Positions 21,541 through 38,125 of a stretch of 64,000 nucleotides of DNA are shown here, one piece after another. The DNA is from a virus. Where the stretch lies: positions 1-64,000 of IMG/VR virus record IMGVR_UViG_3300032249_000480; one strand, given 5' to 3'. The translations under genes were made by a program, and so were the position numbers. The first letter of the stretch is position 1, and each line of letters opens with the position of its first letter. Under the pieces are notes generated by a model, which made no database searches, was not told the origin of the DNA, and saw only the letters and a program-made list of their open reading frames with translations.

Positions 21541-22640
21541 TGGCTAATCCAAGTCGTAGAAGCCAAACAGGTACACCCATTGCAACACAAATGCGTAGCG
21601 ATGAATATACTGATTTTGCAAATACTTCATTTGTTTTGCCACACGGTTTGCAACTTAAGCAAAAAGTTGGAATGGTTGATATTACAAACGTAGTTGATGC
21701 TGGTGCAACCGTTGTTTATACTGCTAATAATAATTACTCTGCTGGAGATATTGTTTCAATTTACTATGTGAATCCAACATCGTATAACCTACAGAGTGCC
21801 ACTATTTTATCTGCAACATCAACTACATTTACTATTACAAGTGCTGCAACTGGAACTTATATTTCAGGTGGTATTGCTCAAAAAACTGGCGCAATTCCTG
21901 TAACTATACCTGCAGGCATCAATTTTGTTTATGCCATTTTAGTTGGTGGCGGTGGCGGCTGGGGTGGCGGTGGTGGCGTTGCCTGGGGTTGGACTTTAGC
22001 GAGTACCACTTGTGTTGTAGGAGCAGGCGGTGGTACTGGTGGTACTACAGGAGGTTTTACGCGTTACGGACATATCATGGCTGGCGGTGGCGGTGGTGGA
22101 GGCAATGCAGGAATTTTGGGTGGTGGTGGTGGCAACGGCACTTCTGGTTCAACAAATTATTATGGTATTCCTGGAGGTGCTGCAGGAACTTCGGCTGTAA
22201 TAAATGGTAATAACGGCTCAGGCGCAGGAGGTGGATTTACTGGTGTTGCAATAAGCAGTAATGGTGGAAATGGAATTTCTGGTGGTTTTGGCGGTGCTTC
22301 TTCTGCATCATCTGGAACTGTTATTGCTGGTAATGGTGGTTCAGGTTTAGTTGGTGGCGGTGGTGGTTCTTGTTTTAATAATTCAACAGGTTCACGTACA
22401 GGAGGCACTGGCGGTAGTGGAATAAATATTTTAACTGGTGTAAAAACAACTGGTGGTACAGCACAATCAGGAACTGGCGCTGGAAATGGTTCAGGCGGTG
22501 GCGGTGGTGGTATTGCAGGTAACGGATCAAACGCTTCAGGAAATACTGCTGGTATTGGTGGACTTGGTGGTGGTGGTGGTGGTGCTGGTGCTACTACTAA
22601 TGCCGCAGGCGGCGCAGGAATACTTTACTTATTTTATTAG
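21540..22640 (+). CDS. glycine-rich fibre protein 1
   Basis: VGGGGG repeats; C-terminal GAGILYLFY. Confidence 0.8.
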   Translation: MANPSRRSQTGTPIATQMRSDEYTDFANTSFVLPHGLQLKQKVGMVDITNVVDAGATVVYTANNNYSAGDIVSIYYVNPTSYNLQSATILSATSTTFTITSAATGTYISGGIAQKTGAIPVTIPAGINFVYAILVGGGGGWGGGGGVAWGWTLASTTCVVGAGGGTGGTTGGFTRYGHIMAGGGGGGGNAGILGGGGGNGTSGSTNYYGIPGGAAGTSAVINGNNGSGAGGGFTGVAISSNGGNGISGGFGGASSASSGTVIAGNGGSGLVGGGGGSCFNNSTGSRTGGTGGSGINILTGVKTTGGTAQSGTGAGNGSGGGGGGIAGNGSNASGNTAGIGGLGGGGGGAGATTNAAGGAGILYLFY

Positions 22641-22649
22641 GAGATTATT

Positions 22650-23567
22650 ATGAACCCACATCGTAAAGGTCAAACTGGCAGTCCTGTTTCAACAGGAATG
22701 AAGTCTGCATCATTTACTAATGCAACAAATAAATCTTTGTGGAACCCACACGGATTACAATTGCGTCAAACAATTAACACAGGTACAACTTCTGTTGATA
22801 TTCCGCAAGGTATTAACTTTGTTTATGCAATTTGCGTTGGCGGTGGAGGTGGAGGTGGAGTTCCTGGATCAGGCGGAGGAGCGGGTGGAATAACTTGGGG
22901 TTGGACTTTTGCTGCAACAACTTGCGTAGTTGGTGCTGGTGGCGTTGGTGCAACTAATCCAAATGCTGGAGGTTTAACTAGGTACGGACACTTGATTGCT
23001 GGTGGCGGCGGTGATGGATTGGACCGACAAGATGCTTTCTTAGGTGGCGCAGGCGGTACAATAAACCCAGGCTCAACTAACTTTTATGGAATTGTTGGTG
23101 GATCACAGGGCAGTGGCTCGGGAGGAAGTGGAACTCCTTCGGCTGGCGCAGGCGGTGGAAATACTGGAACATTGTTTGGTGGTAATGGCGGTAATGGAAT
23201 TTCAGGTGGTGGTGCTTCAACAGGAAATTCAGGAACTTCTAGTACAGTCAGAGGTGGCAATGGGGGTAGTGGGTTAGCAGGTGGTGGAGGTGGTAGAGGA
23301 GTCAACTCAAGCACATCAAATATTGGTGGCGTTGGTGGTAATGGAAAATCTTTAATTGATAAAACGATTTTTACAGGTGGTAATGGTGCATCCATAGGTT
23401 CAACTAGCACAGGCGCTGGTGCTGGTGGTGGCGCAGGAGTTGCTGGCGACGGTGCATCTGGAAGTACAACGGTTGGCGGTGCTGGCGGTTTAGGCGGTGG
23501 CGGTGGTGGTGGCGGTGGTACTGGTGCAGGCAACGGTGGCGCAGGAATTCTTTATCTTTTTTACTAA
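22650..23567 (+). CDS. glycine-rich fibre protein 2
   Basis: Paralog with the same GAGILYLFY end. Confidence 0.8.
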   Translation: MNPHRKGQTGSPVSTGMKSASFTNATNKSLWNPHGLQLRQTINTGTTSVDIPQGINFVYAICVGGGGGGGVPGSGGGAGGITWGWTFAATTCVVGAGGVGATNPNAGGLTRYGHLIAGGGGDGLDRQDAFLGGAGGTINPGSTNFYGIVGGSQGSGSGGSGTPSAGAGGGNTGTLFGGNGGNGISGGGASTGNSGTSSTVRGGNGGSGLAGGGGGRGVNSSTSNIGGVGGNGKSLIDKTIFTGGNGASIGSTSTGAGAGGGAGVAGDGASGSTTVGGAGGLGGGGGGGGGTGAGNGGAGILYLFY

Positions 23568-23590
23568 AACAATGATAGAATGGAGTTAAT

Positions 23591-24697
23591 ATGAGCGCAT
23601 CAATTTATAGCAATCCATCTTTTTCTGACACACCATTTGGGTTGCAACTACGAGAAACTTTTGCAGTATCTGGATCAGTGACAATTCCTGCTGGCATTAA
23701 CAGAGTATTTGCAATCTGTGTCGGTGGTGGTGGAAGTGGTGGAAGTGGTGGAAGTTCTTCTGTAAATACAACTGGCGGTGGCGGTGGAGCAGGTGGACTT
23801 TCTATGGGTTGGACTTATGCAACCAACACAGTAACAGTAGGCGCAGGTGGTGCTGGTGTCAGTAATGCAATTGGTTCAGTTGGTCAATCATCCGTTTATG
23901 GGATGGTTATTGCAGGCGGTGGTAATGGTGGTAATGGTAATGGCTCATCGGCTCTTGCAAATATTGGCGGAGCAGGCGGTGGAGGTTCAACTGCTTCTAC
24001 AAATGGCACAGTAGGTTCAGTAAGTTATACAGGCGGACCTGGAGGTGCAATTGGTGGCGGTATTGGCGTTGCTGGTGGTGGTGGAAATACTGCAACATCA
24101 GTAGGTGGCGCAGGTGGAACAGGTATTTCAGGTGGCGGTGGTGGTGCAGCAACAACTACTACTGCTAATGCAACTGGTGGCGTAGGTGGCTCAGGTGTAA
24201 TTGGCGGAGGCGGTGGAAGTGCTGGAACACTCAATTTCACAGGAACAGGTGGGGCTGGCGGTGCTGGTAATGGCGGAGCAGGTGGTGCTGGTTCAAGCGC
24301 AAATGGAAGAACAACTGCAACAGGAACAACTGCCGCAACAGCAGGCGGTGGAACAGTCACATTTACTGTAAATAATACTTTTCAGGTTGGTGATGTAGTA
24401 ACAATTGCAAGCGTTAACCCGTCAAGTTTTAACTTAAATAATCAAGTTATTACTGCAGCATCTGCAACACAATATTCAGTTAGTAATGCTTTAGTTGCAA
24501 CATACACATCAGGTGGAACGCACACTGTTGCTTCCCCTGTTGCAGGTGGCGGTGGAGCAGGATTTTACGGTGCAGGAAATTCTGCATCAGGACGCAATGG
24601 CGGAGCAGGTGGTTTAGGCGGAGGCGGCGGTGGCGGTTCATCCGTTGCTGGAACCTCTGGCGCTGGTGGCAATGGTGTTGTTTATATTTACTACTAA
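23591..24697 (+). CDS. glycine-rich fibre protein 3
   Basis: Paralog ending GNGVVYIYY. Confidence 0.8.
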   Translation: MSASIYSNPSFSDTPFGLQLRETFAVSGSVTIPAGINRVFAICVGGGGSGGSGGSSSVNTTGGGGGAGGLSMGWTYATNTVTVGAGGAGVSNAIGSVGQSSVYGMVIAGGGNGGNGNGSSALANIGGAGGGGSTASTNGTVGSVSYTGGPGGAIGGGIGVAGGGGNTATSVGGAGGTGISGGGGGAATTTTANATGGVGGSGVIGGGGGSAGTLNFTGTGGAGGAGNGGAGGAGSSANGRTTATGTTAATAGGGTVTFTVNNTFQVGDVVTIASVNPSSFNLNNQVITAASATQYSVSNALVATYTSGGTHTVASPVAGGGGAGFYGAGNSASGRNGGAGGLGGGGGGGSSVAGTSGAGGNGVVYIYY

Positions 24698-24710: not shown

Positions 24711-24935
24711 ATGAATTATCGTTATATATATAAATGCGAAAAATGTGGTCGTGACTACATTGAACATAGACCAGAAACTCAAGAACAGATTCATACAACT
24801 TGCGAGTGTTCAGGAACTTTTGTTCTTGATTCTTCTGATCAATGGGGAATCACAGAGATAGAAACAATAAATAATCCTATTCATCAATCTTATACAGAAG
24901 AAAATGATGCTTTAATTAATGAACAAACTATTTAA
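24711..24935 (+). CDS. small zinc-ribbon protein
   Basis: YKCEKC...CEC. Confidence 0.6.
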   Translation: MNYRYIYKCEKCGRDYIEHRPETQEQIHTTCECSGTFVLDSSDQWGITEIETINNPIHQSYTEENDALINEQTI

Positions 24936-25584
24936 CCCAAACCATTCCAACATCTGCAGTAGGTCTTAAATTAGATTTTTTCCATTCTCCATCAATCCAT
25001 TTTTGAGAATTATTATCTACCCATTTAGTTAAACTACCTATTGGATACCAATTTAATGGTTCTTCTAAATGATTTTCAATAAATTGTGGAGCAAAATATT
25101 TATATCCAAGATTTTTTAAATATTTTAATTGTTCTTCATGCTGATCAAGAGTTTCATAAGTCCACTCAAATACAAGTTTTCCATATTTTTTTGTCATACC
25201 ATTAAATACAAACCACTCAGCACCTTCAACATCTATTTTAATTAAATCAGGTTCTCCATATATTTTTGCAAGGGTATCAATAGTAATAGTTGTAGCCTTA
25301 ACGGTTCTATATACCTTGCCGTTATAGGGCATAGCAGGGTCTGTAAGCCACGACTTTTCAATGGTTGATAGTCCATCCTCAACACACTCGTAAAACTCTA
25401 TATTCTGGTTATCTGAATCAGATACCGCAATTTTTAATGGAACAACCATAGGATTATAAATAAAATTTGAAACTAATTGTTTAAATACTCTTGAACCAGG
25501 CTCTAATGCTATTACTTTATATCCTTTATTTAATCCAGCAAGAACAGCATCTCCCCTATTTGCTCCAATGTCAAACAGGAGCAT
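24928..25584 (-). CDS. FkbM-family SAM methyltransferase
   Basis: FDIGANRG, LEP, IKIDVEGAE. Confidence 0.9.
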   Translation of the reverse strand: MLLFDIGANRGDAVLAGLNKGYKVIALEPGSRVFKQLVSNFIYNPMVVPLKIAVSDSDNQNIEFYECVEDGLSTIEKSWLTDPAMPYNGKVYRTVKATTITIDTLAKIYGEPDLIKIDVEGAEWFVFNGMTKKYGKLVFEWTYETLDQHEEQLKYLKNLGYKYFAPQFIENHLEEPLNWYPIGSLTKWVDNNSQKWIDGEWKKSNLRPTADVGMVWVK

Positions 25585-26137
25585 TTATTTTTTCCAAATT
25601 GTTTTTAATAGAATTCATATATATATCAGAAACTTCAGTATTATCTTTTAATATATTTAATAGCATTATGGATTCTTTTAATCTGCCAATCCACCATGCA
25701 GCAATAGCCTTTTGAAATGTTAATGCATATTTTGCAGGGTAGTCAACATTAATAGGAAGACTCTCATCTTGTTCACCAAACATTAAACCAATTTCTGCAA
25801 AGGTATAAGACTCTTGCCAATTACCAGCACGTTCATGAAACCTTGACATAAGGAAATAACCTTCTGGTCTATTAGGAAGATATTGAATTGCTTGATATAA
25901 ACAGTTAGTTATTGTATTATTTCTATCATTTTGATCTTCAAAGCATATTGATACCCTGAGCAAAGATGAATAGGTAATTAATGGATCTGTAATATATCCA
26001 TATTCCGCTGCTCTTAAATAAAAAGATACAGCAGAAGCAGTTTGCTGTAATTCTTCATATTTTTTAGCAACTTCAAAATTTAAAGACGGGTTAAAAGGAT
26101 CATATGAAAGATCATAAATTAAATTCTCAATTTCCAT
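25571..26137 (-). CDS. TPR-repeat protein
   Basis: A..FYLRAAE and AIQYLPNRPEGY helical repeats. Confidence 0.7.
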   Translation of the reverse strand: MEIENLIYDLSYDPFNPSLNFEVAKKYEELQQTASAVSFYLRAAEYGYITDPLITYSSLLRVSICFEDQNDRNNTITNCLYQAIQYLPNRPEGYFLMSRFHERAGNWQESYTFAEIGLMFGEQDESLPINVDYPAKYALTFQKAIAAWWIGRLKESIMLLNILKDNTEVSDIYMNSIKNNLEKINAPV

Positions 26138-27137
26138 AAGATAATGCCTCCAATATCATATCTTCTACAACTAACTTAGGTGTTCTAAGTACAAATGCAG
26201 CATTATCTTGAAAACCAAAAGATATTAATAGGTCTCCATTATGCACTGCTGCTCCCGCACAAAATTCAATACGAGCATCTAGGAATGAAAATGGTTCTTT
26301 AGATAATCCAACAAGATTAAGTTGATCATCCCAAACACATAGCCTATGTCTGTAAATACCATCCTTTTGTCCAAGGTAATTTTTAAATAAATTTACTTCA
26401 TGTGTAATAGATAAATACATATTACCCCAACGAATTAAGTGTGAACTACCTCTCTGATCTGTTGGAGGAACAATTCCAACCTTATGAGAAACTTGTTCAC
26501 ATCTTGCAGGAAGATCTGGATATGTTCTTACTAGTTCAGAAGGTGCTGTCCATTTAATAAAGTGATATGGTTTATCATTAACTGGTACCCAGTTTTTTTC
26601 ACAATAAGATTTGTTATCACCTGGAGCAGGAATTCTAATACGAGAGATTTCTTTAATCTCCCACTTTTCTTTATCTATTGATATTTCAGATAATTCCATT
26701 CTTCCTTCACCATGGGCAGTTGTATCTCTACGAACTCCAACGGCATAATATTTATCTTCCCACTGAACAAGGCGACAATCTTCTTCCCCAATAAATTCCC
26801 ACAATGGATCTACATCTAAAAGCGATGTATCAATAACAGAATAGTTTGTCATATTTAGATCACTATCTAGTTTACATATATAATTTGTTGTTCTTAAATT
26901 ACGATCTTTTTCTGGATGAAGATATGACAAAGGACCCCATTTTGACGGGAACATTTGATTATTTTCAGAATGATATAGGGTGTAGTTGACATGACGAAGA
27001 TTTACTAAGATATCTCCATCACTATCAACAAATACGGAAGGATTCATTAACCCAGTTCCGCTAGTAAGTCCTTTTGATATTACCAATGGGGCTAATTTGC
27101 CTCCATGTTTTACAGATTTTTGAACCAGGTTTTCCAT
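26127..27137 (-). CDS. five-bladed beta-propeller carbohydrate-active enzyme (GH130/GH43-clan-like)
   Basis: MNPS, EDCRL, EKNWVP, IEFCAG, ISFGFQD. Confidence 0.7.
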   Translation of the reverse strand: MENLVQKSVKHGGKLAPLVISKGLTSGTGLMNPSVFVDSDGDILVNLRHVNYTLYHSENNQMFPSKWGPLSYLHPEKDRNLRTTNYICKLDSDLNMTNYSVIDTSLLDVDPLWEFIGEEDCRLVQWEDKYYAVGVRRDTTAHGEGRMELSEISIDKEKWEIKEISRIRIPAPGDNKSYCEKNWVPVNDKPYHFIKWTAPSELVRTYPDLPARCEQVSHKVGIVPPTDQRGSSHLIRWGNMYLSITHEVNLFKNYLGQKDGIYRHRLCVWDDQLNLVGLSKEPFSFLDARIEFCAGAAVHNGDLLISFGFQDNAAFVLRTPKLVVEDMILEALSYGN

Positions 27138-27221: not shown

Positions 27222-28193
27222 ATGTCAGAAAATATTGGAAGTGCTATTACTGGTCTAACGACTTTTAATGTCAATACTCTAATTCCATCTCTTTCAGATA
27301 ATGCTGATATTCAAGAAGCCCTCAGACTTTATCATTACGGTGCTCCATCTGGAAGCGGTATTGGACAATACAGTTTATCAAATACAAACCCAGCAAATCT
27401 TAAAAATCCATCAATTGCTCATGCACTATATACTTTACAATCAGAAATAGATTCGCTAGTCTTGGGAGTTCCAGCATCTCTTTGGACAGGAAAAGGTGCT
27501 CTTGTTACAGCAACATCTTCAGGAACAACATCTACAATTTCAGTAGGAGCAAATGGAACTGTTTTAACTGCTAACTCTGCAAATGGTAACGGTCTTGTTT
27601 GGTCAGTTCCAGAAGTTACAGCCGCTGGTTCTGAAACATTATTAAATAAAACTCTTATTGGTCCAACAGTTTCTTCTCTTGCTTTGTCAGATTCCTCAAT
27701 AATTTTTGAAGGATCAACTGCAGATATATATGAAACTACATTAACAGTAGTCAATCCAACAGCAGATAGAACTATTACACTTCCAAATGTTGACGGTACT
27801 GTTATTACCACTGGTAATCTTTCTTCAATAACTTCTGTTGGAACTTTAACATCTCTTGCTGTAACTGGTAATGCTGTTAGTCATATTGCACTTAATACAA
27901 CTCCTACTGGAGCATATACAGTTGTTCTTGCTGATGATGGAAAAATTGTTGAAATACCTGCAGCAGGAGCAGTTACAATTCCTTCAGATGCTACAACAAA
28001 TTTTCCTGTCGGAACTCAAATTACAATTTTGCAAACAACCTCTGGACAAGTAACAGTTGTTGGCGCAACAAGCCCAAATGCAGTAACTATTAATGCAACA
28101 CCAGGATTAAAACTTCGTACTCAGTGGTCATCTTGCACTGTTATAAAGCGTAATACAAATCTTTGGGTAGCCCTAGGAGACTTAACAGCATGA
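27222..28193 (+). CDS. tail fibre protein
   Basis: ADIQEALRLYHYG N-terminus, TADRTITLP repeats, C-terminal ...WVALGDL domain. Confidence 0.75.
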   Translation: MSENIGSAITGLTTFNVNTLIPSLSDNADIQEALRLYHYGAPSGSGIGQYSLSNTNPANLKNPSIAHALYTLQSEIDSLVLGVPASLWTGKGALVTATSSGTTSTISVGANGTVLTANSANGNGLVWSVPEVTAAGSETLLNKTLIGPTVSSLALSDSSIIFEGSTADIYETTLTVVNPTADRTITLPNVDGTVITTGNLSSITSVGTLTSLAVTGNAVSHIALNTTPTGAYTVVLADDGKIVEIPAAGAVTIPSDATTNFPVGTQITILQTTSGQVTVVGATSPNAVTINATPGLKLRTQWSSCTVIKRNTNLWVALGDLTA

Positions 28194-29320
28194 GTCCTTT
28201 AATACCAGGAATTTTTTCTTCTGGTGGACAACAACCAGGTACTCCAACAATTGGAACAGCAACTGCTGGAAATGGTCAATGCACTATTACTTTTACTGCT
28301 CCAGCATATTTAGGAAAAATTCCAGGAACAACATACAGAACATTTACACAGCCAGTAACAATAAGAAGTACAACAGGAACTATAGGAACTGTAACTCAGT
28401 CAGGATCAATGTTCTTTGCAACAATTACTGGACTGTCATCAATTACAAATCTTTTTCGTAATCAAGTAATTTCAGCAACCAATGGAACTGGAAGCCTTGG
28501 TGCTGGAGTAGTTACAATTTCATCAATTATATCATCAACATCTATAATCGTTCAATCAACTGCATCAATGACACAAGGAACAATTACTAATATTTTAGGT
28601 GGAATTTTTGCAACTGGTTCAGTATCACCAATAATAGTAACTGGATTATCAAATGGAACATCATATACTTTTAGAGTTTTATTAAGTAATGAAATAGCAA
28701 CATCGGTGGCAAGTGAAGAAAGCAATAGCACCACTCCATTTCAACCATTTGGATTTACCCCATTTGGATTTTCACCACCACCAGTATTTTCATTTTCACC
28801 ACCTGGAGGGGGCTTTAGTCCTGGTCCAGGATATAGTTTTACTGCACCATGGTCCAACTCAATTGATGTACAAACAAAAGTTAGAACACCAGATGGTTTA
28901 AAGTATGCTGGAGAAATTCAAGTAGGAGATGTGCTTTTAGGTTTAAACATACCATCAGATATAAATGAACAGGAATGGCTTTCTTGGTCATCTGATGCTA
29001 ATAATTTTACTGCAAACATTGCAGAAACAACAGTTACGTCTGTCTTAGTTAATTCAGGATCAGAATATATTTATATAGATGGAGACTTATTTACACCAAC
29101 TCACTATATTTTAACAAAAAAGAATAATATTATTGAATATACAAAAGCAGACTCAATAGATACAACTTATCAAAAATATTCTTATGAAATGAATGATTTC
29201 GTAGATATTGAAATTGTTGAAGATATTGCTGTTGATAATAATAATATTTCAATTCACTGTGAACCTCATGACAACTTCTTTACTGAGCAAATGCTGGTGC
29301 TTGAATCTTTACCACACTAG
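28190..29320 (+). CDS. FN3 + Pro/Phe-rich repeat + C-terminal Hint-domain protein
   Basis: PGTPTIGTATAG / TGLSNGTSYTFRV (FN3); SIDVQTKVRTPDG..IQVGD, TPTH and HCEPHDNFF (Hint blocks). Confidence 0.75.
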   Translation: MSPLIPGIFSSGGQQPGTPTIGTATAGNGQCTITFTAPAYLGKIPGTTYRTFTQPVTIRSTTGTIGTVTQSGSMFFATITGLSSITNLFRNQVISATNGTGSLGAGVVTISSIISSTSIIVQSTASMTQGTITNILGGIFATGSVSPIIVTGLSNGTSYTFRVLLSNEIATSVASEESNSTTPFQPFGFTPFGFSPPPVFSFSPPGGGFSPGPGYSFTAPWSNSIDVQTKVRTPDGLKYAGEIQVGDVLLGLNIPSDINEQEWLSWSSDANNFTANIAETTVTSVLVNSGSEYIYIDGDLFTPTHYILTKKNNIIEYTKADSIDTTYQKYSYEMNDFVDIEIVEDIAVDNNNISIHCEPHDNFFTEQMLVLESLPH

Positions 29321-29355
29321 TTTATGGTATTATGGTATAGAAACAAGGTGGTAAA

Positions 29356-30114
29356 ATGAATAATATAGAAGATAAAGATAATATTGATGACAATGGTAAT
29401 ATAATTGAATTTATATCATCATTTCCTAAAATGGTCAGTGTATTCCCAGAACCAGAACCATCTTTAAAAAATGTGCCACAATGGTATAAAGAGCAGTTGT
29501 CATATTTTAATAATGACAAAACTCCAGAAAATGGATTTCAAAATATAACAGTTAAAAAATGTATGGCTATATCAGATGTATTACTAATGGGTTATATTTT
29601 AAAAGCACCTTGCGATGTTTATATAGATACAACAGATGGAACAACACTAAAATATGATATTCCTGGCAACTTACCATTTTCAAAACCAATGTTTGGTGGA
29701 CATGCACAATTACAATACGATAAAATGCCAATTGATAAAGATTTTTACGTAAGAGACTTATTAAGATTAAACATGGTTTGGCTAGTAAAAACAAAACCAG
29801 GATATAGTTGTTTATTTATTAATCCAATGTTAGGAGATGAGTCGCCACTTATGTCTGTTCCAGGAGTAATAGATACTGATGAATTTTTAGATACTGGTTT
29901 ATTTTCATTTTTTGTAAAAAAGAATTATAAAGGAATTATTAAAAAAGGAACTCCTTTAATTCAAGTAATACCATTTAAAAGAGAAGAATTTAATCATAGT
30001 ATTGTAAAAGATTTAGACATTACAAATAAATTAAAGGAACAAGATTTAAACATAAGAACAAATTATAGTTCTGGCTATAAAAATTTATTTTGGAAAGCAA
30101 AAAAATACAAGTGA
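29356..30114 (+). CDS. DUF6065-like protein
   Basis: PQWYK, TVKKCM..D, PGYS, GVIDTD, KGTPLIQVIPFKRE. Confidence 0.6.
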   Translation: MNNIEDKDNIDDNGNIIEFISSFPKMVSVFPEPEPSLKNVPQWYKEQLSYFNNDKTPENGFQNITVKKCMAISDVLLMGYILKAPCDVYIDTTDGTTLKYDIPGNLPFSKPMFGGHAQLQYDKMPIDKDFYVRDLLRLNMVWLVKTKPGYSCLFINPMLGDESPLMSVPGVIDTDEFLDTGLFSFFVKKNYKGIIKKGTPLIQVIPFKREEFNHSIVKDLDITNKLKEQDLNIRTNYSSGYKNLFWKAKKYK

Positions 30115-30683
30115 AAAATATAATAATAGATAATCTATTAACAAAAGATAGTATCGCACTAATAAAAAAAATAATTAATTCAGAACTAGAACGAAAAGAT
30201 ATTTGGGCTAAGTCATATACAGATTATTGTTTAAACGGAAAAGAACAGTTTTTAAAACAAAAAGATGACACTATAGCAATTAGTAGGTCAGATTTTGCAA
30301 GAATTGACTTGCGTAATTTAAAAATCCCAAAAGAAATTATTAATGAGATATCTGAAAAACTAGTAGAAAATAATTTTTTAAAATACAAGTACTGTGGATC
30401 TTCAACAGCATGGTTATATAATAAAAACTTAGGAAATCCAAAATTAACAGATCACATAGATCATACGGAGGACGAAAATACAATCATGGTTGATTATCAA
30501 TTAGACTCAAATACAGATTGGGCAATATCTGTTGAAAATAAAAACTATATACTATCAAACAATCAGGCGCTCATATTCTGTGGGAAAAAACAAAAACATT
30601 CCAGACCATTTAAAAAGTTTAATGACGGTGAATTTGTAACAAACATAGTTTTTAGATTTAATATAAATGAAAACATATACTAA
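30111..30683 (+). CDS. 2OG-Fe(II) oxygenase
   Basis: HID...YQL...H.R facial-triad pattern. Confidence 0.7.
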   Translation: MKNIIIDNLLTKDSIALIKKIINSELERKDIWAKSYTDYCLNGKEQFLKQKDDTIAISRSDFARIDLRNLKIPKEIINEISEKLVENNFLKYKYCGSSTAWLYNKNLGNPKLTDHIDHTEDENTIMVDYQLDSNTDWAISVENKNYILSNNQALIFCGKKQKHSRPFKKFNDGEFVTNIVFRFNINENIY

Positions 30684-30685
30684 CA

Positions 30686-31336
30686 ATGTCTTCGTTATTT
30701 GAAAATAATAAAAGGCTTGGATCCAAGTATTGGATAAATTCTGAAGAAAAAAATTTTAGTCAGTTAGTTCAAGAATCAAAAATGATTCAAGAATTTTCAG
30801 ATAGTTCTATTTTAAAAAAAAAGAATTATGAGGAAAAGTTAATAGTTCCAGTAAACCCATATGTTGAATATTTTTATCCAAAACCAAAACTTATAGAAAC
30901 GGAAACTGGAATAATTCTTAGACAAAAAACACATGCAGAAATATGGGTTGAGTATAAAAATGATTCTTTGTATATGTTAGATAAATGTTGGCAAAGGCAG
31001 TTTTATCCATCAAAAAATACATATGATAATTTAAATAATCAGCCACTGTATAGATTTTACGTACCATGGACAATAGAGTCTGAAAATAGTTTTGAGGTAA
31101 AATCAGTAAGCCCTGTTTTTAATATTTATACAAAATCAATAACATTTTTTAAAAGAAACTTTAACGATAATTTTATCAATACTCCATTTATTGATTTTTC
31201 AATAAAAAAACAAGGAAAACACATGAAAACAGAAAAATATGGTATAGTTGATATTGGAACAGACATGTACGATATAGTTATTGATAACTCCAATATTGCA
31301 GAAAGGATTGTAGAGGAATATGGAAAAGATATTTAA
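30686..31336 (+). CDS. hypothetical protein in modification cluster
   Basis: ORF track. Confidence 0.6.
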   Translation: MSSLFENNKRLGSKYWINSEEKNFSQLVQESKMIQEFSDSSILKKKNYEEKLIVPVNPYVEYFYPKPKLIETETGIILRQKTHAEIWVEYKNDSLYMLDKCWQRQFYPSKNTYDNLNNQPLYRFYVPWTIESENSFEVKSVSPVFNIYTKSITFFKRNFNDNFINTPFIDFSIKKQGKHMKTEKYGIVDIGTDMYDIVIDNSNIAERIVEEYGKDI

Positions 31337-32051
31337 ATTTATTCCAACTGATTCAAATAAAACAAAAAACATTGATGCTATTATTCCAACAAAATCTACA
31401 TCTGTTATTCCAGAGTGGTATAAAGATTTGGCTGGTTATCACCATGGAACTAGTCATAGTTTAGAATATTTAAATCCAATTAATGATCGTGGTTCCGATG
31501 GATCAGACGTATCAACCAAACTATGTTTACCTTTTATGGATGCAATGACATCTGGCTATATGTATCTTCTTGAAGATGATGTTGATGTTACACTTGATGA
31601 AAATGGAAAGCCAACAGTTTCATGGAACAATTTTTCAAATGTAATGGATATTCGTCCACAGGTAGATATGGCAATACCAGAAGAATGTCATCCTATACAA
31701 TTTGGGGTTAAAATGAACTGGTATTGGGAAACTCCTAAAAACTATTCAACGCTAATTACGCATCCATTTAATAGACCAGATCTACCATTTTATGTTCCAT
31801 CTGCAATTGTTGATTCTGACATTTGGGCTTTACCAGCATTTATTCCATTTTTTATTAAAAGAAATTTTATAGGAAAAATAAAGCGTGGAACACCAATATT
31901 TCAAATGACACCAATTAAAAGAGAAAACTGGAGTTTAGAAATTGATTCATCAGAAGAGTCAATACTTAAGCACAAAATTCTTGAAGAAAAAAGAAGGTCT
32001 CATATTACAGCACATTACAAAAAAACTACTTGGCAAAGGAAAAGATACTAA
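31320..32051 (+). CDS. DUF6065-like protein (paralog of 29356..30114)
   Basis: PEWYK, KLCLPFMD, THPFNR, RGTPIFQMTPIKRE. Confidence 0.6.
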   Translation: MEKIFKFIPTDSNKTKNIDAIIPTKSTSVIPEWYKDLAGYHHGTSHSLEYLNPINDRGSDGSDVSTKLCLPFMDAMTSGYMYLLEDDVDVTLDENGKPTVSWNNFSNVMDIRPQVDMAIPEECHPIQFGVKMNWYWETPKNYSTLITHPFNRPDLPFYVPSAIVDSDIWALPAFIPFFIKRNFIGKIKRGTPIFQMTPIKRENWSLEIDSSEESILKHKILEEKRRSHITAHYKKTTWQRKRY

Positions 32052-32053
32052 AA

Positions 32054-32713
32054 ATGAATAATGTTATAGATAATAATAAAATAGTTTATGATAAATCACA
32101 TAAATTTTTTGAAAGAATTTTAGATATAGACACAAATAACTTAGCGTCTTATTTAATTGCACAATATGAAAGCATTAAAAATTTAACATTACCAGGAATT
32201 ACTCAAATCAATAGACAAGATGTTTGGCAAGAGTCTGGAAGTCTATCTACAATAAAATGGAGAGAGTATAATGTATTTCAATTTTTAAATTCAGATATGT
32301 ATAAATTGTATAAGACAATTTCAGAAGTTACAAAAGAAGCCTGTGAATATTATGGTGTTGATTTTGAAAAACAAGAATATGTAATGCAAGGCTGGTTTAA
32401 TATTAATTATACAAAGTCTGGAAAGTTAGACTGGCATGATCATGGTATTCCTTATGCTCCAAATTTTCACGGGTATTATTGTGTAAAAGCAGAACCATCA
32501 ACTACACATTATAGATTATTTAATGATATAAACCAAGAAATTGAAAATAAAAATATTGATAATAGAATGATCCTTTCTGAAATGGGGCATCCGCATGCTC
32601 AGGCAGATTGGGACTGGGAAGGCCCAAGAATTACAATTGCTTATGATGTTGTTCCTTTAAAATACTTAATGGGCACAAAGACATCTGAGCAGCATTGGAT
32701 TCCACTTATATGA
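32054..32713 (+). CDS. 2OG-Fe(II) oxygenase (TIGR02466-like)
   Basis: WFNIN, WHDH, GYY, H...RITIAYD. Confidence 0.75.
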   Translation: MNNVIDNNKIVYDKSHKFFERILDIDTNNLASYLIAQYESIKNLTLPGITQINRQDVWQESGSLSTIKWREYNVFQFLNSDMYKLYKTISEVTKEACEYYGVDFEKQEYVMQGWFNINYTKSGKLDWHDHGIPYAPNFHGYYCVKAEPSTTHYRLFNDINQEIENKNIDNRMILSEMGHPHAQADWDWEGPRITIAYDVVPLKYLMGTKTSEQHWIPLI

Positions 32714-33525
32714 TAAAGATTAAAGTTTTTATACATTCTTATAAAAATAAAAATTTATTAGATTTTTGTGAAAACTTACAAAAAAATGCTTTTCATGAAG
32801 TTGCAATTGATGTTTATGATCAAAACACTATTGATAGGTCAGAAGCGTTTTACAATAAAAAAAATATAAACTATAAACACATATTATGGGATGATAGAAA
32901 AGGAATTTCATACTATAGAATGTTGAGTTTGCATGGAAGGTTTGACTATTTTTTATCAATATCTGATTTAACAATTTTTAAATCTGGGTGGGACTTAGAG
33001 TTAATAAAAGAATGTACAGATATGAATATAGTATCTGGCAAGAACTTGATATCTTTAAAGATAGATAATTTTTTTATTTTACAAGAAAGCGAAATATCTG
33101 AAAAAGTTTCTGAATCTCAATGGATAAATAAAGATTTTATATTTTTAAAAATGTCAAATGCTGTTTTGTTGTCTAAGTCTAAATTTTTAAAAAAATATGG
33201 TGAAAGTTTGTTTTTTTCAATATTGTTTTCAGAACTTAATTTTAAAATAAAAAGCATGTACAATTCCTTCTATGATAAAGAAATTGAAGAAGAAAAATAT
33301 TTGCCATATTCAAAATATCACGGATATAATAAGTTAATATCAATGATAAAAAATAAAGAAATTAAATATAAAAAGTTTGAAGAATATCATAAACTTGATT
33401 TATTAAAGTTAAATCTTTTGCCATTTGAAACTGATGATGTTTCATATTACAAGCCAATTTTTAATATAGACTTTGAAGAAGAAACTAGATTTCATCGCAA
33501 TATAAAAAAAATAGAGATTGTGTAG
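32710..33525 (+). CDS. GT60-like (hydroxyproline GlcNAc transferase-like) glycosyltransferase, possibly degenerate
   Basis: VFIHSYKN, DQN, KG...R, DYFLSISD..F..GWD..LI; canonical DSH appears as SDL. Confidence 0.55.
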   Translation: MIKIKVFIHSYKNKNLLDFCENLQKNAFHEVAIDVYDQNTIDRSEAFYNKKNINYKHILWDDRKGISYYRMLSLHGRFDYFLSISDLTIFKSGWDLELIKECTDMNIVSGKNLISLKIDNFFILQESEISEKVSESQWINKDFIFLKMSNAVLLSKSKFLKKYGESLFFSILFSELNFKIKSMYNSFYDKEIEEEKYLPYSKYHGYNKLISMIKNKEIKYKKFEEYHKLDLLKLNLLPFETDDVSYYKPIFNIDFEEETRFHRNIKKIEIV

Positions 33526-33528
33526 GAT

Positions 33529-34128
33529 GTGATGATGCATAGAATTACTATAGTAGATAATTTTATAGAAAAAGAAGATGCAGAAATATTAATTAGTGAA
33601 CAAAAAAATCCATCTGATATAAATCCATATCCAGAATATTATAAGAAAAGATATGGAGGAACTGCTTTCCCATATAACAATACTGTTATGAATATATTAA
33701 AAAAATATTCTATTAGTGCAAATCAAAAACATAAAGAGTTGAATGGTTTTATTAATCCAATATATACTTTTAAGGCTTTTGGATCTCACTGGCAAGCAGG
33801 AACAAAGGGAGATTTGCATTTAGATGCACAGGGACCAGAACCTTGGATTGAGTTTAGTACTATAATCTATTTGAATGATTCATCAGAATACAGTGGTGGT
33901 AAAATATATTTTCCAAATCAAAACTTTATGTATCAACCAAAAGCATATTCAGCAGTATTTTTTCCAAGTGCTGGATCAGAATATATTCACGGTATAACTG
34001 AAGTTACAAGTGGACACAGACACACTGCTTTATATATGCATACGAGTATTCCAGATAATGCAGATCCAGACTTTCTTGAAGAAAATACAATGCTAAGATG
34101 GGAAGCACAATATCATGGATTTAAATGA
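33529..34128 (+). CDS. prolyl-4-hydroxylase-like 2OG-Fe(II) oxygenase
   Basis: HLD, IIYLND, GGKIYFP, HGITEVTSGHR. Confidence 0.85.
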   Translation: MMMHRITIVDNFIEKEDAEILISEQKNPSDINPYPEYYKKRYGGTAFPYNNTVMNILKKYSISANQKHKELNGFINPIYTFKAFGSHWQAGTKGDLHLDAQGPEPWIEFSTIIYLNDSSEYSGGKIYFPNQNFMYQPKAYSAVFFPSAGSEYIHGITEVTSGHRHTALYMHTSIPDNADPDFLEENTMLRWEAQYHGFK

Positions 34129-34789
34129 AATTGATTTTGAAATTTTAGATTTAGGACTTGTTTATTATAAAAATATAATAAAAAACCCACAACAATTAAT
34201 ACTAGATATTGAGTCATTAGATAAAAGTTTCAATGAGTCAAAAATTTCTTTCTCTGAAACTTCTGTAAGGCCATGGACTCCTTGGAAAAATGAAAGTGGA
34301 AATAAAGAAACATTTTGTTTACAAAAACTTATACCACAAGTAAAAGATATACAAGAAAGCGATATTTATAAAAATGAACAAATAAATATCTCTTCTCAAC
34401 TATTTGGCGCATTAGAAAATACTTTAAAACATTACTCAACAAAAATATATCCCTGGGCAGAAAAAAATATTAAATCAAGAGAGCAAAATATGCATTTATT
34501 AAGATATGATTATTCTGGATATTTACCAGCACATCAAGATCAAGGTATTAGTACTAGAGTTTTGTCTGTTTTACTTTATTTGAACGATGATTATGAAGGT
34601 GGAGAGATAGAGTTTAGGCACTCAGAAGTTAAGATTAAGCCAGAACCAGGAAGTGTATTATTTTTTCCATCCAATTTTTTATATATTCATGAAGTTCATC
34701 CAGTAACAAAAGGCCCTAGGTATGCTTTGCCAAATTGGTATCATAATGTACAATTAGATTTTCTGAAGCGGTCAACTGGGCAAGAATAG
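34115..34789 (+). CDS. prolyl-4-hydroxylase-like 2OG-Fe(II) oxygenase
   Basis: HQD, LLYLNDDYEGGEIEF, HEVHPVTKGPRY. Confidence 0.9.
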   Translation: MDLNEIDFEILDLGLVYYKNIIKNPQQLILDIESLDKSFNESKISFSETSVRPWTPWKNESGNKETFCLQKLIPQVKDIQESDIYKNEQINISSQLFGALENTLKHYSTKIYPWAEKNIKSREQNMHLLRYDYSGYLPAHQDQGISTRVLSVLLYLNDDYEGGEIEFRHSEVKIKPEPGSVLFFPSNFLYIHEVHPVTKGPRYALPNWYHNVQLDFLKRSTGQE

Positions 34790-34812
34790 AATATAAATAA
34801 GAAAGGGAAAAC

Positions 34813-35439
34813 GTGAGCAATTTAAATAAAAGAGAAGACTATATTATAGAAGATGATAATTTTTTAACTTTGCAAGATCAACAAAATTTTGTTAATAAAA
34901 TTTTTATGAATAATGGACATAATGAAAATCCAGTAGCCAAATGGAGAGTTACAAACGGAACAGAAATTATTAAAAATTTAGAAGAAGGAACTTTTCCATA
35001 CAGAGACACTCCTTTAGCCTTTAATAATGAAAAATCAAAACCATTTTTTATGGTTTTAGGTGATTTAGAATTAGAAGACTTTAAAGATATTTTTGATAAA
35101 TTTTGTAATAAACATAATATAAAATATGACAAAATTTTAAGATCAAGAATTGCAATTACTGGAATGAACAACGATGATTATATGCATTATGCACATGTAG
35201 ATACCATAATTAAACATGATGTGTTTTTATATTATCTACATGATGTAGACGGAGATACAGTGTTTTATGATAAGTGGCTTGGGGATTCAATGGAAGATCC
35301 TAAGATTATAAAAAGAGTGTCTCCCAAAGGTGGAAAGGCTATAAGGTTTGACGGACACCAGTTTCACTCAAACTATACAACTAATCTAAAACAATTTCGT
35401 TGTGTTTTGAATGTATGTTACACCTTAAAAAAAGATTAA
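34813..35439 (+). CDS. 2OG-Fe(II) oxygenase
   Basis: HVD, LYYLHDVDGDT, FDG..FH, R.VLN. Confidence 0.8.
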   Translation: MSNLNKREDYIIEDDNFLTLQDQQNFVNKIFMNNGHNENPVAKWRVTNGTEIIKNLEEGTFPYRDTPLAFNNEKSKPFFMVLGDLELEDFKDIFDKFCNKHNIKYDKILRSRIAITGMNNDDYMHYAHVDTIIKHDVFLYYLHDVDGDTVFYDKWLGDSMEDPKIIKRVSPKGGKAIRFDGHQFHSNYTTNLKQFRCVLNVCYTLKKD

Positions 35440-35440
35440 A

Positions 35441-36160
35441 ATGACATATCCAAAATATAATGATTTAATAGAAACAATTAGTCACTTACCATATAAAACT
35501 ATTTTGGTAGATGGGCCTAGAAGGTGTGCAACTAATTATACTAGAGCAAGCATAACATCTATGGTAAAAAATAATATAGTTTTTAGTCATTCAGACGCAT
35601 CTCATGATCCAAAAATATTTATTAAAAATAATAATTATTTGCATAGTGAAAATGTCTTACACATAATTCCAATTCGTAATCCAAAACAAGTTTTTATTTC
35701 TGCATTTATTATGTATGGTTACAATGATACAGAATATATCTTACAAATTTATAAAGGATTGTTAAACCAAGAAATTTTAAATTTTAAGAATTATCTTAAT
35801 TTAGAAAAAAAATATAAAAATACAGTTTTGTGTCCCATAGAACTTTTTAATAATAATGAAAATACAATATTAAACATTATTAATAAACAATATGATTTAA
35901 AATTAACAATAAGTGATTTTAATAAAGAAAAAGTTTTAGAAAGTCTTTCTTTATTTGAAGAAAAAGAATATGGTAAGAATGGTTTAATAAAATTTCACTC
36001 TTACCCAATCAAAGAACAAAAAACTGAAGAGTATAAAAATCAAATAAATTTTATGTCAAATCTAATTAATGAAGATAAAAAATCATTAAAAAAAATAGAA
36101 TTTCTTTCTTATGAATATGATTTATTTTTTGCTAATCAAAAAAAAGAGTGGGGCTTGTAA
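35441..36160 (+). CDS. sulfotransferase-like protein
   Basis: GPRRCATNY (5'-PSB loop) and IRNP (3'-PB). Confidence 0.55.
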   Translation: MTYPKYNDLIETISHLPYKTILVDGPRRCATNYTRASITSMVKNNIVFSHSDASHDPKIFIKNNNYLHSENVLHIIPIRNPKQVFISAFIMYGYNDTEYILQIYKGLLNQEILNFKNYLNLEKKYKNTVLCPIELFNNNENTILNIINKQYDLKLTISDFNKEKVLESLSLFEEKEYGKNGLIKFHSYPIKEQKTEEYKNQINFMSNLINEDKKSLKKIEFLSYEYDLFFANQKKEWGL

Positions 36161-36208
36161 AATTGAATTGAAAAACTTATAACTAGATACTTTAAGAAAA
36201 TAAAAAAG

Positions 36209-36229
36209 AACCCCTCCTAAGAGGGGTCC
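36209..36229. terminator. probable bidirectional terminator
   Basis: ACCCCTC/GAGGGGT hairpin between convergent genes, flanked by A and T runs. Confidence 0.65.
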
Positions 36230-36241
36230 TAATTTTATATA

Positions 36242-36790
36242 TTACTTAGGAAATTTAGACATCCACATTCTGGTCTTTGGGGTAATGCCCTTCCAAGAAG
36301 ACCAATCATCTCCACCCTTTGTCATGTAGTATGCAATCTCTGCATTCTTAACGGGATTGAATAGTTCAGCGTTAGACTCAAGATCAAACTTAGTTCTACG
36401 ATCAGGACCAAGGTTATCAATCATATTAATTTGAAACATGCCATAAGAAGAGTCCCCAGTCTTATGGTTTCCGTTGAAAGCCAATGGTCTACCATTAGAT
36501 TCTTTTTTTGCTACAGCCCAAGCCACTACAAGGTCATTACCCTTAAAGCCAACAAGAGACAGCAACTGTTTTAGTTCTAAATCAGTAAGATGAGTTTTAT
36601 TTTCAAAACTACTTAACATTTTTTCCTTAGAAACCAAAAAAACCGCCTCAGCGGTTGTTGAAACAGCATTCGTTTTAATACTTAGATTATTTTTAGTAGA
36701 CAAAGCGTTAGCATTGGCTGCTCCTACAACTGCAGTAAAACCAAGCACGGATGCGAGTACCCCTATTAGAAATTTTTGATCATTTTTCAT
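36242..36790 (-). CDS. secreted lysozyme-like lytic transglycosylase
   Basis: Signal/anchor sequence; AKKESNG catalytic Glu, YGMFQIN, NPVKNA, WSSW. Confidence 0.85.
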   Translation of the reverse strand: MKNDQKFLIGVLASVLGFTAVVGAANANALSTKNNLSIKTNAVSTTAEAVFLVSKEKMLSSFENKTHLTDLELKQLLSLVGFKGNDLVVAWAVAKKESNGRPLAFNGNHKTGDSSYGMFQINMIDNLGPDRRTKFDLESNAELFNPVKNAEIAYYMTKGGDDWSSWKGITPKTRMWMSKFPK

Positions 36791-36928
36791 AGTTTCCTCC
36801 TTAGAAAACAATAACACCTGTTTGGTGTCATACTCTAGTATAACATCTCAAAAATGTTATGTCAAATGACTTTACGCATAAGTAGAAAACTTTTTTAATT
36901 AATTTGAGCGTGGTATAATAGAAATACT

Positions 36929-38125
36929 ATGGCTACTGGCTCTACTTCAATATATAACATACCGTATCCTTTGTCAACTGACCCTGTAAATGTTCATTCA
37001 GATATGCAGCAAATGGCTACAACTCTTGAAACTATTTTTGGTGTTTTTAATGTTTCTCTTTCTTTTCCAAATACATGGACAAACTGGAATGTGTTTGAAA
37101 CAGTTTCTACACAACCTACAGTTACTATTACTCAGGCTGGAACTGGACATGCCTTATTAGTTCAAGATGGACCATCTGATACTACGCCTTTTATTATTGA
37201 TAGTTCTGGCAATCTTGTTATTGGAAAAACTACAGCAGCAGGAGCAAAATTAGATGTTGTTGGAAATTCAATTTTTACTGGATCAGTTACTGCAGGTTCT
37301 TTTATAGGTACAACATATTTGGGAACCACCGAATTATCTTTAAGCAGATCTTCAGCAAATCAAGGACTTACTGGAATATCTAGCATTCAGTTTCCAGGAT
37401 CAACTTCTGGAACAATAACACTGTCTTCCTCAGCAATTGCTGGAACAACGGCCATAACGCTTCCAGCAACATCTGGAACACTTCTTATAAATCCTATGAC
37501 AACCGCTGGAGATATTATTTATGGCGGAGCATCTGGTGTACCAACAAGACTCCCTGCTGGCTCTAATTCACATGTTTTAACATATGATAGTGCAACAAAT
37601 GCTCCTAAATGGTCAGCAGTTGCAGCAGGATACTCTGCACCAACTATAGGTTCAACATCTATCGGTTCTGGAGCAACAGTTACAACAATTGCTGGACTAA
37701 CTTTAACAACACCAGTTATAACTTTAAACACAACATCTAATAATGCAACTGGAACAATATCATGGGATTCAACAAACAGACTAATTCAAGTTGGAGATGG
37801 ATCTGGTGTTACAAATATTGCACCATTTATAGTTAATCAAGTTGCTAAAACAGGAAACTACACATTAATTCTTTCTGATGCAAATACATTAATTCAAATG
37901 AATGGTGCTTTTACATTTACTGTTCCTCTTAATGCCACAGTGGCATATCCAATAGGAACAACAATCAGCCTTATAGCACTTACAACTGGTGTTCAGGTAG
38001 CCTTTACTGCAGGAATTACATCTTATGCTACGCCAGGACTAAAACTTAGGGCTGCAGGTTCTATGGCAACATTAATTAAGTTAGGTACAAATACTTGGGC
38101 ATTAACTGGAGATTTAATAGCATAG
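36929..38125 (+). CDS. tail fibre protein
   Basis: IPYP..TDPVNV..D N-terminus; C-terminal domain similar to 27222..28193. Confidence 0.75.
   Translation: MATGSTSIYNIPYPLSTDPVNVHSDMQQMATTLETIFGVFNVSLSFPNTWTNWNVFETVSTQPTVTITQAGTGHALLVQDGPSDTTPFIIDSSGNLVIGKTTAAGAKLDVVGNSIFTGSVTAGSFIGTTYLGTTELSLSRSSANQGLTGISSIQFPGSTSGTITLSSSAIAGTTAITLPATSGTLLINPMTTAGDIIYGGASGVPTRLPAGSNSHVLTYDSATNAPKWSAVAAGYSAPTIGSTSIGSGATVTTIAGLTLTTPVITLNTTSNNATGTISWDSTNRLIQVGDGSGVTNIAPFIVNQVAKTGNYTLILSDANTLIQMNGAFTFTVPLNATVAYPIGTTISLIALTTGVQVAFTAGITSYATPGLKLRAAGSMATLIKLGTNTWALTGDLIA

Follow-up and report, generated by a model that had tools for sequence, protein, structure and literature searches.

Why should a phage encode a predicted self-processing domain in its tail-fibre module, immediately upstream of a run of predicted protein-tailoring enzymes? 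The question is raised by a 64,000-bp stretch of viral DNA (the window), bases 1-64000 of IMG/VR record IMGVR_UViG_3300032249_000480, which is 104,786 bp long and has direct terminal repeats. On the plus strand of the window, at 28190-29320, lies a gene for a 376-residue protein (the Hint protein) composed of an FN3-like region, an aromatic- and proline-rich repeat, and a C-terminal Hint domain; ten further plus-strand genes, g1 to g10, follow it. Comparison with homologues indicates that this is a widespread family, in which a fibre-module protein bearing a hypervariable aromatic repeat and a predicted cleave-only Hint domain is followed by a slot for accessory enzymes. As to what the enzymes act on, our preferred reading, which we hold with a probability of about 0.4, is that they modify phage structural proteins post-translationally, the repeat of the Hint protein being the leading substrate.

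A homologue search over 5.8 billion proteins returned 433 relatives of the Hint protein, whose alignment shows one conserved layout, with FN3 first, then a short tandem repeat, and at the C-terminus a domain of 150 residues. The FN3 domain called in the initial annotation is weakly matched in the window protein itself (E 0.074), but PF00041 (FN3) is found in many of the homologues, and PF14890 (intein splicing) in several. An AF2 model of the window protein is poor over residues 1-222 (pLDDT <50), the FN3 and repeat region, and has a pLDDT of about 85 over residues 223-376, the Hint domain (28859-29317, plus strand), which we assign from structural comparison by VIA and Foldseek, motif conservation, and a profile match to the gp41-1 intein. 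Foldseek retrieves BIL2, inteins, and the Hedgehog HhC domain at E ~1e-6 with TM 0.7-0.8; VIA aligns residues 224-374 of the model with residues 258-402 of Hedgehog HhC (1at0) at Z 17.7, with an rmsd of 1.9 over 130 residues, and its top matches range from Z 17.7 to 16 with an rmsd of about 1.8-2.1 over about 130 residues; and the profile of the domain matches the gp41-1 intein at E 0.004 and a bacterial intein-like (BIL) domain at E 0.05. The fold originally proposed is thus confirmed, and on the evidence of the model we regard this as a genuine Hint domain. Ser224 (28859-28861) aligns with the Hedgehog nucleophile Cys258 and with residue 1 of inteins; block B reads TPTH, its His being kept in at least 90% of 28 relatives; and in relatives the domain begins Ser-(I/V)-x-x-x-T and contains an invariant Cys within INCEPYDNFFT.

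Neither a terminal His-Asn nor a C-extein was found, the window domain ending ...MLVLESLPH at the stop codon and those of relatives ...MLVFD(x), so the domain does not qualify as a protein-splicing intein. We infer instead, from model and motifs, that the domain cleaves or transfers (BIL type B or Hog-like), with a predicted scissile bond at Asn223|Ser224, where an N-to-O acyl shift would be followed by ester hydrolysis or transfer; cleavage, as in BIL type B or Hedgehog-like domains, would release an FN3-repeat polypeptide with the repeat as its new C-terminus. Megablast and tblastn of the region and of the Hint protein against 50,697 deposited phage records gave no match, nor did a single-sequence scan of viral contigs, and we found no literature on Hint or BIL domains in phage tail or fibre proteins. 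The FN3-repeat-Hint architecture is undescribed in phage fibre modules.

The repeat itself, a Pro/Phe-rich imperfect repeat spanning residues 183-221, is encoded exactly where it was first annotated, at 28736-28852 (plus strand; PFQPFGFTPFGFSPPPVFSFSPPGGGFSPGPGYSFTAPW), immediately N-terminal to the Hint domain, with SNSIDVQT as the residues that come next; its SPPP and SPP are the proline-containing acceptor candidates. Across relatives this position is hypervariable, with at least seven unrelated repeat units found there: PFGFT, GAF, PYSFV, PFF/PPFF, PPPF, SPF/APF, and HYAGF. Some relatives carry true tandem repeats in the DNA, GGTGCCTTC x11.6 encoding GAF (L031:9875-9978) and CCATTCTTCCCA x10.5 encoding PFFP (L034:2948-3067), unlike the window copy which is degenerate at the DNA level. 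These sequences suggest slippage-driven hypervariability of a fibre-associated element. The locus had also been described as RiPP-like (resembling ribosomally synthesized and post-translationally modified peptides), but the analogy is loose at best, since what the enzymes would act on is a 376-residue multidomain protein of structural type in a fibre module, and a Pfam scan of the window proteins detected no RiPP recognition element and no RiPP-class enzyme family.

Immediately upstream, a tail-fibre-like protein of 323 residues (27222-28193, plus strand) matches the tail and tail-fibre families phrog_8780 and phrog_38058; its stop codon overlaps the ATG of the Hint gene at 28190 (ATGA), and genes of the same type precede Hint genes syntenically in relatives. 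Downstream, the open reading frame (ORF) map bears out the ten co-oriented genes, which extend from 29356 to 36160 and are tightly packed or overlapping. No terminator-like site was found between the Hint gene and g1; the only strong terminator-like hairpin, a bidirectional one, lies at 36207-36230 between g10 and a convergent gene (36242-36817, minus strand; PF18896, E 6e-16) for an SLT-type lysozyme-like protein with an N-terminal signal or anchor. This layout suggests that fibre, Hint, and island genes are transcribed late as a single unit, and the hairpin would close both this unit and the convergent SLT gene. The SLT gene is a conserved synteny anchor among relatives. Beyond it stands a second fibre-like protein (fib398, 398 residues; 36929-38125, plus strand; phrog_21978 match), and the 323- and 398-residue fibres share a near-identical C-terminal motif, ATPGLKLR...W.ALGDL.A, so that the low-GC island is located between paralogous fibre genes.

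The initial annotation counted five 2-oxoglutarate (2OG)-Fe(II) oxygenases in the island, two of them resembling prolyl 4-hydroxylase (P4H); in our hands g7 and g8 are firm, g9 is supported, and g2 and g5 remain tentative. The P4H-like pair, g7 (33529-34128) and g8 (34115-34789), pass the 27-bit gathering cut-off of Pfam 2OG-FeII_Oxy_3 (PF13640), g7 with 31.1 bits (E 4.7e-7; also phrog_61) and g8 with 66.1 bits (E 5.9e-18), and the best PDB match of g8 is the P4H of B. anthracis (5e-6). In a 38-member alignment of the g7/g8 oxygenase (OX) family the HxD...H triad (H140, D142, and H192) is conserved in at least 90%, and the family profile matches B. anthracis P4H (1e-19), P3H1 (8e-17), PHD2 (1e-10), LH3, PBCV-1 P4H (9e-11), and mimivirus L230 (3e-7), with Tet at 2e-6. 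By sequence, then, the OX family belongs to the protein prolyl/lysyl hydroxylase clade and is not of Tet/AlkB type, and similarity to solved protein hydroxylases makes peptidyl-proline the candidate substrate of g7 and g8.

The other three are less easily placed. A probable 2OG oxygenase, g9 (34813-35439) matches phrog_274 (E 1.6e-17), as do g7 and g8, and has an HxD..H..R motif with invariant residues H128-x-D130...H182/H185...R196; it found no Pfam match and no PDB sequence match, profile search included. For g2 (30090-30683), a possible oxygenase, we found weak matches to phrog_2954 (E 1e-4) and phrog_274, a motif H122-x-D124...H170 that by eye is conserved in five sequences, no Pfam match, and a weak hhalign score to the OX profile. 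The highly conserved family of g5 (32030-32713; phrog_2696, E 4e-7) comprises 1367 homologue clusters at E<=0.001, lacks a Pfam domain, and is mostly 50-67% identical to the window protein among the best 120 homologues; its 2OG-like motif is seen by eye only, g5 itself has no Pfam match, a profile search gave no PDB match, and hhalign to OX gives a probability of 1%. Invariant residues of the g5 family include a WHDH-like motif, H189, and R200. When all three are compared with the OX profile by hhalign, probabilities are low (1-12%), yet the catalytic residues fall in register.

How constant is the association? Loci with Hint homologues (60 viral and 79 metagenomic) were mapped by phmmer and jackhmmer, and the related contigs derive mostly from lake metagenomes. 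Enzyme islands lie directly behind Hint-repeat genes at two separate slots in about 135 related contigs, but similar clusters also occur without Hint genes, so that the proposal of repeat modification is supported in part. Two Hint genes are typical of a relative: the short copy stands between a short fibre gene and the SLT gene, the long copy between two large fibre genes and a ribonucleotide reductase (RNR) gene. The long copy is invariably followed by a phrog_7084 gene (the family of g1 and g4, see below), accompanied by 0-9 PF13640 oxygenases and by true DUF6065, g5-like, GT60/GT2 or epimerase genes; what follows the short copy is DUF6065 together with 0-4 oxygenases. The ten-gene cassette is intact in six contigs (L005, L047, L058, L061, L074, and L137), and its order is still recognisable in L072 and L079, where the Hint domains are only about 47% identical.

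Two further features of the slots deserve mention. Short and long Hint copies can be nearest neighbours on the Hint-domain tree, as in both comparable cases, one within a single contig (L134:1028/L134:8176) and one between a short copy and the long copy of a near-identical contig (L010:9953/L013:3750), and such pairing points to gene conversion or to concerted evolution of the copies. In the HYAGF clade the slot holds two phrog_7084 genes and a g5-like gene but no PF13640 oxygenases, and also a GT2 gene (L052:7115-8224) and an NAD-dependent sugar epimerase/dehydratase (L057:9661-11785).

If the oxygenases hydroxylate the repeat, their number might be expected to follow its proline content. In a comparison set of 75 unique Hint domains, with prolines counted in the last 50 residues and PF13640 genes counted downstream, 20 of 25 repeats with at least 15 prolines per 50 residues are followed by at least two OX genes, and 44 of 47 repeats with nine or fewer prolines are followed by none. 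Within the proline-rich clade two SPF/APF lineages, with 13-14 prolines but no PP, lack oxygenases, which is concordant if anecdotal.

A good many observations, beginning with this same comparison, weigh against the repeat as the target of the island. Nearly all proline-rich loci belong to one clade, the proline-rich rows of the Hint-domain tree being one clade and one long branch (L143), so the correlation is not statistically independent; with two to five independent pairs a sign test is powerless (p=1), and we reject any claim of statistically supported co-evolution of proline content and oxygenase number. The five proline-rich exceptions are short Hint copies that abut the SLT gene and have no OX gene, though in one of these cases the long copy on the same contig has five oxygenases. 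L079 is a counter-example of the opposite kind, with a cassette of two OX genes and only two prolines in its repeat, and L072 has a cassette that lacks the PF13640 pair. Nor is Ser-Pro-n, or proline itself, what the repeats have in common, since it is the aromatic residues that are constant across relatives. The gene that most constantly adjoins the Hint gene encodes a dUTPase-fold protein (phrog_7084) and not an oxygenase; and because GAF and HYAGF repeats, which have no proline, keep this neighbour, the dUTPase-fold gene is not proline-directed. Lastly, the GT60-like protein of the island has an altered motif (below), and further proline-rich proteins and P4H-like genes are encoded elsewhere in the genome.

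Some of these points, and others, would be explained if the island were a hypervariable moron or auxiliary metabolic gene (AMG) insertion at the boundary of tail-fibre and lysis/nucleotide-metabolism genes, its adjacency to the Hint gene being positional and its enzymes acting on host envelope glycans, host proteins, 2-oxoglutarate pools, or small molecules. The Hint slot is a module boundary and a frequent site of accessory-gene accumulation, where 1 to 11 genes of variable kind are found at the same positions, and the GC content of the window island (0.26-0.28, overall 0.27) is lower than that of its surroundings (about 0.36). Oxygenases and sugar enzymes also occur far from the Hint gene, among them P4H-like genes at 89580-90212 and 101359-101970 of the genome, and in L013 and L019 OX genes stand after the RNR. 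Multi-copy 2OG oxygenases are common in aquatic phages, where they are treated as AMGs: about half of sequenced cyanophages have them, often in several copies, and their suggested roles (DNA repair, 2OG drawdown) are speculative, substrates never having been shown (PMC3037559, PMC10452541). Clusters of phrog_7084 and 2OG genes are found in cyanophages that have no Hint homologue at all: in Syn9 and S-RIM44 the phrog_7084 homologues lie inside a tryptophan-halogenase cluster, which in Syn9 also has annotated 2OG oxygenases and adjoins a tail-fibre assembly gene, and no repeat-bearing protein was seen in the oxygenase cluster of either phage. The deposited phage genomes contain no Hint homologue, so clusters of this kind are present in phages that lack a Hint protein.

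A purely positional island is harder to reconcile with four other features of the locus: i) both separate slots directly follow Hint-repeat genes; ii) the gene order of the cassette persists in diverged relatives, as one would expect of a functional module rather than of random accretion; iii) nothing resembling a terminator lies between the late fibre genes and the island; and iv) OX number follows the proline content of the repeat, though phylogeny confounds this. We regard a positional island as a serious but on the whole doubtful alternative to modification of the Hint-protein repeat.

A narrower alternative, which we consider decidedly improbable, retains protein modification but assigns it to phage structural proteins other than the Hint repeat. 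Candidates are a PT-rich protein (85097-86530 of the genome), a LysM protein (65363-66187), several Gly-rich paralogues, and the fibres that flank the island. The PT-rich and LysM proteins are themselves proline-rich, one oxygenase and an intact GT60 gene lie nearer to the PT-rich protein than to the Hint gene, and mucin-like stretches are also substrates of GT60 enzymes, glycosylated at Thr/Ser. In two relatives (L019:619-1725 and L026:643-1704) the short Hint gene is replaced by a gene for a Cys/Gly/Ser/Thr-rich protein of 353-368 residues without Pfam match, and this Cys-rich gene is followed by small ORFs, among them one with CxxC pairs, and by a single P4H-like oxygenase, so that here an oxygenase stands behind a non-Hint protein. 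It is nevertheless the Hint genes with the most proline-rich repeats that the OX-rich islands of relatives adjoin, and one obvious class of structural substrate falls away: the collagen-like fibres were rejected as P4H substrates, their repeats being G-x-Q with almost no Pro or Lys.

These two collagen-like fibres, made up of G-x-Q triplets, and the three Gly-rich paralogues are encoded 5' of the Hint locus (14584-16998, 19784-21157, and 21540-24697). The Gly-rich paralogues end in (I/V)(L/V)Y(L/I)(F/Y)Y, and the GC content around them is 0.48 in a genome of 36% GC.

The two paralogues first annotated as DUF6065-like, g1 (29356-30114) and g4 (31320-32051), align with each other and match phrog_7084 (E 2e-44 and 1e-29, respectively). 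Neither matches Pfam DUF6065 (PF19541) at E<=1, and one of 25 relatives matches at E 0.15, but they appear to be distant relatives of true DUF6065 proteins: hhalign of the g1 family against these gives E 6.8e-4 and a probability of 27% over 130 columns, and iterated jackhmmer connects 30 ORFs to both families. True DUF6065 genes are present in the islands of relatives (E 1e-23 to 4e-36); we found no literature on DUF6065. In structural comparison of an AF2 model of g1 (pLDDT 81), the top 22 VIA matches are all dUTPase, DCD, or DURP proteins (Z 9.7-5.8; the next scores 4.5), and Foldseek matches the dUTPase superfamily with a probability of about 1.0 and E 3e-3. We conclude from the model that g1 has the dUTPase/dCTP-deaminase jelly-roll fold. 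The g1 profile found no sequence-level match to solved dUTPases among PDB sequences; by eye, the g1/g4 alignment contains a motif III-like GVIDxD (D173 and D175 invariant) and a motif IV-like KGTPxxQ, and no motif V-like sequence. These proteins may act on a nucleotide or nucleotide-sugar, by binding or by hydrolysis, or may serve nucleotide metabolism instead. Homologues of phrog_7084 span T4-like cyanophages and haloarchaeal myoviruses.

Might the module then act on nucleotides or DNA, making or decorating a modified base beside the RNR? Besides the fold and motifs of g1 and g4, the neighbourhood of their homologues invites the idea, for these adjoin an RNR in three unrelated virus groups, lying within 1-2 kb of it in cyanophage S-RIM4 (L066, 158324-159118) and halovirus Serpecor1 (L067, 28631-29461), and g8 has a weak Tet_JBP match (E 2e-4, below cut-off). 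The homologue in Syn9, gp43 (L068, 36054-36842), annotated like the other two as hypothetical, instead adjoins tail-fibre assembly and halogenase genes. The OX family, moreover, is nearer to protein hydroxylases than to Tet/JBP (1e-19 versus 2e-6), true DUF6065 relatives lack the Asp motif, and a Pfam scan saw no hydroxymethylase or kinase of known hypermodification pathways in the island. A class II RNR is encoded 3' of the island in the window, but the island stays with the Hint and fibre genes, the SLT and fib398 genes intervening before the RNR. A nucleotide- or DNA-directed module is thus very improbable beside our preferred reading of protein modification.

Among the remaining island genes, g6 (32695-33525) is a divergent GT60-like protein. 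As initially annotated it does pass the Pfam GlcNAc family (PF11397, E 1.2e-4), but marginally, scoring 22.2 bits where 21 are required, and the match covers only 75 of the 352 positions of the profile. The canonical DxH motif is absent: g6 has ISDLT where true GT60 members have DSH(T/S), and a deletion as well. BLASTP against the true GT60 of the same genome gives E 9e-7 over 49 residues only. The ISDLT substitution is found in all cassette-type copies including the diverged L072 and L079, so that g6 appears to represent a distinct GT60 subfamily, possibly non-catalytic. The intact GT60 (95198-96115 of the genome, E 5e-58) lies 60 kb from the island. The sulfotransferase-like call for g10 (35441-36160) is supported at the level of a lead: it has invariant motifs, GPRRCxTN and R79-x7-S87, which we take to resemble the 5'-PSB and 3'-PB motifs that bind 3'-phosphoadenosine 5'-phosphosulfate (PAPS), and language-model and structure neighbours in Sulfotransfer_1 clusters (atlas feature score 0.96, TM 0.6-0.68), with no Pfam match and no PDB sequence match even by profile search. 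Finally, g3 (30686-31336) is conserved within the cassette (L005, L047, L058, L061, L072, L074, L079, and L137) and gave no Pfam, PHROG, or atlas lead.

Related enzymes are encoded in other parts of the genome. A second accessory region (88750-101970 of the genome; L065:4750-17970) has genes for a CHAP lysin, a P4H-like oxygenase, an SNase, an adenosine 5'-phosphosulfate (APS) kinase/cytidylyltransferase fusion, and the intact GT60, and a minus-strand cassette of GT1-like, GT47/RXYLT1-like, FkbM, Glyco_trans_1_2, and P4H-like oxygenase genes. On the other side of the Hint locus, a minus-strand cassette of three genes (24928-27137) encodes an FkbM methyltransferase, a tetratricopeptide repeat (TPR) protein, and a 336-residue protein without Pfam match (26127-27137); in L079 the Hint-linked cassette ends with a homologue of this last protein (7627-8508). 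From its portal, protease, capsid, and 2123-residue tape measure genes the phage is a predicted siphovirus; the portal is closest (46% identity) to those of 131-kb Streptomyces phages, which fits an actinobacterial host, and an actinobacterium is by this sequence evidence probably the host.

How would the preferred reading work? The island would be an accessory module that modifies co-produced structural proteins by prolyl hydroxylation and possibly by glycosylation or sulfation, with the proline-bearing repeat of the Hint protein as the leading candidate substrate; the intact GT60, the APS kinase, and other glycosyltransferases encoded elsewhere in the genome could assist. The support for hydroxylation of the repeat (apparent late co-transcription, adjacency at two slots, conservation of the cassette, enzyme class, and the clade-level match with proline content) is circumstantial, and equally circumstantial evidence favours a generic accessory island or other substrates. 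One could go further and imagine a freshwater phage family in which self-excision of the Hint domain, or its ligation of the protein to a partner, exposes as new C-terminus a hypervariable, slippage-prone aromatic repeat that, where it is proline-rich, up to nine prolyl hydroxylases together with glycosylating or sulfating partners convert into an extensin-like, hydroxyproline-rich adhesive tip; this fuller scheme we think unlikely as a whole.

We wish to emphasise what hangs on the outcome. If repeat modification holds, the abundant and long-unexplained 2OG-Fe(II) oxygenases of phages would gain a defined virion substrate, and this phage family offers a concrete test, having a candidate substrate gene directly upstream of the enzymes, repeats that range from proline-free to proline-saturated, and 0-9 OX genes. 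If the Hint domain is active, the FN3-repeat-Hint protein would show Hint autoprocessing in a new role, that of assembling virions or attaching them to the host. And if the link between repeat and enzymes fails, the locus would be an example of synteny at a module boundary mimicking a functional operon.

Comparison with known systems helps to place each part of the locus. The closest relatives of the Hint domain by fold are the BIL domains, Hedgehog Hog, and Tetrahymena BUBL (Z 17.7 for HhC, 17.2 for the C. thermocellum BIL, and 17.0 for BUBL BIL2), with which it shares a position-1 nucleophile, a block-B His, and a C-terminal location on a variable surface-type protein; from sequence, N-terminal cleavage or transfer without splicing would be expected of the phage domain also. 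It differs from them in that the nucleophile is Ser rather than Cys, the terminal His-Asn and C-extein are lacking, and the domain is fused to FN3 and an aromatic tandem repeat in a tail-fibre module. As for the g1 protein, it resembles the dUTPase/dCTP deaminase superfamily in its jelly-roll fold and collinear motif I-IV-like positions, but is about 100 residues longer, lacks a motif V arm, and has no Pfam match.

The island as a whole recalls three kinds of system. The 2OG clusters of T4-like cyanophages (Syn9 gp43-gp50, with tryptophan halogenases) likewise have tandem oxygenases and a phrog_7084 gene beside tail-fibre genes, but here the cluster stands behind a Hint-repeat protein, has GT60-like and sulfotransferase-like genes and no halogenases, and belongs to a phage whose host is probably an actinobacterium; a P4H/Ofd1-like prolyl hydroxylase has been detected in a cyanophage virion preparation (PMC12801897). 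The protist Skp1 pathway (PhyA P4H and Gnt1 GT60) and plant extensins or hydroxyproline-rich glycoproteins (HRGPs), invoked in the initial annotation, resemble the present locus in that P4H-type and GT60-family genes are encoded together; however, the GT60-like protein of the island lacks DxH, the intact GT60 is 60 kb away, no Skp1-like acceptor is present, and the repeat is defined across relatives by its aromatic residues, many versions being proline-free. Freeman et al. in 2023 (PMC10527164) reportedly described phage-encoded glycosylation of mycobacteriophage virions (capsid and tail), and such mycobacteriophages, together with chlorovirus PBCV-1 (glycosylation machinery and P4H) and mimivirus (the collagen lysyl hydroxylase-glycosyltransferase L230), provide a third parallel: these virion glycosylation and hydroxylation systems, like the present locus, have glycosyltransferases, methyltransferases, and P4H- or lysyl hydroxylase (LH)-type oxygenases of their own encoded beside structural genes. 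Here, by contrast, modification is a prediction from the genes, and the proposed acceptor is a repeat that a Hint domain would process, in place of a capsid C-terminus or a collagen.

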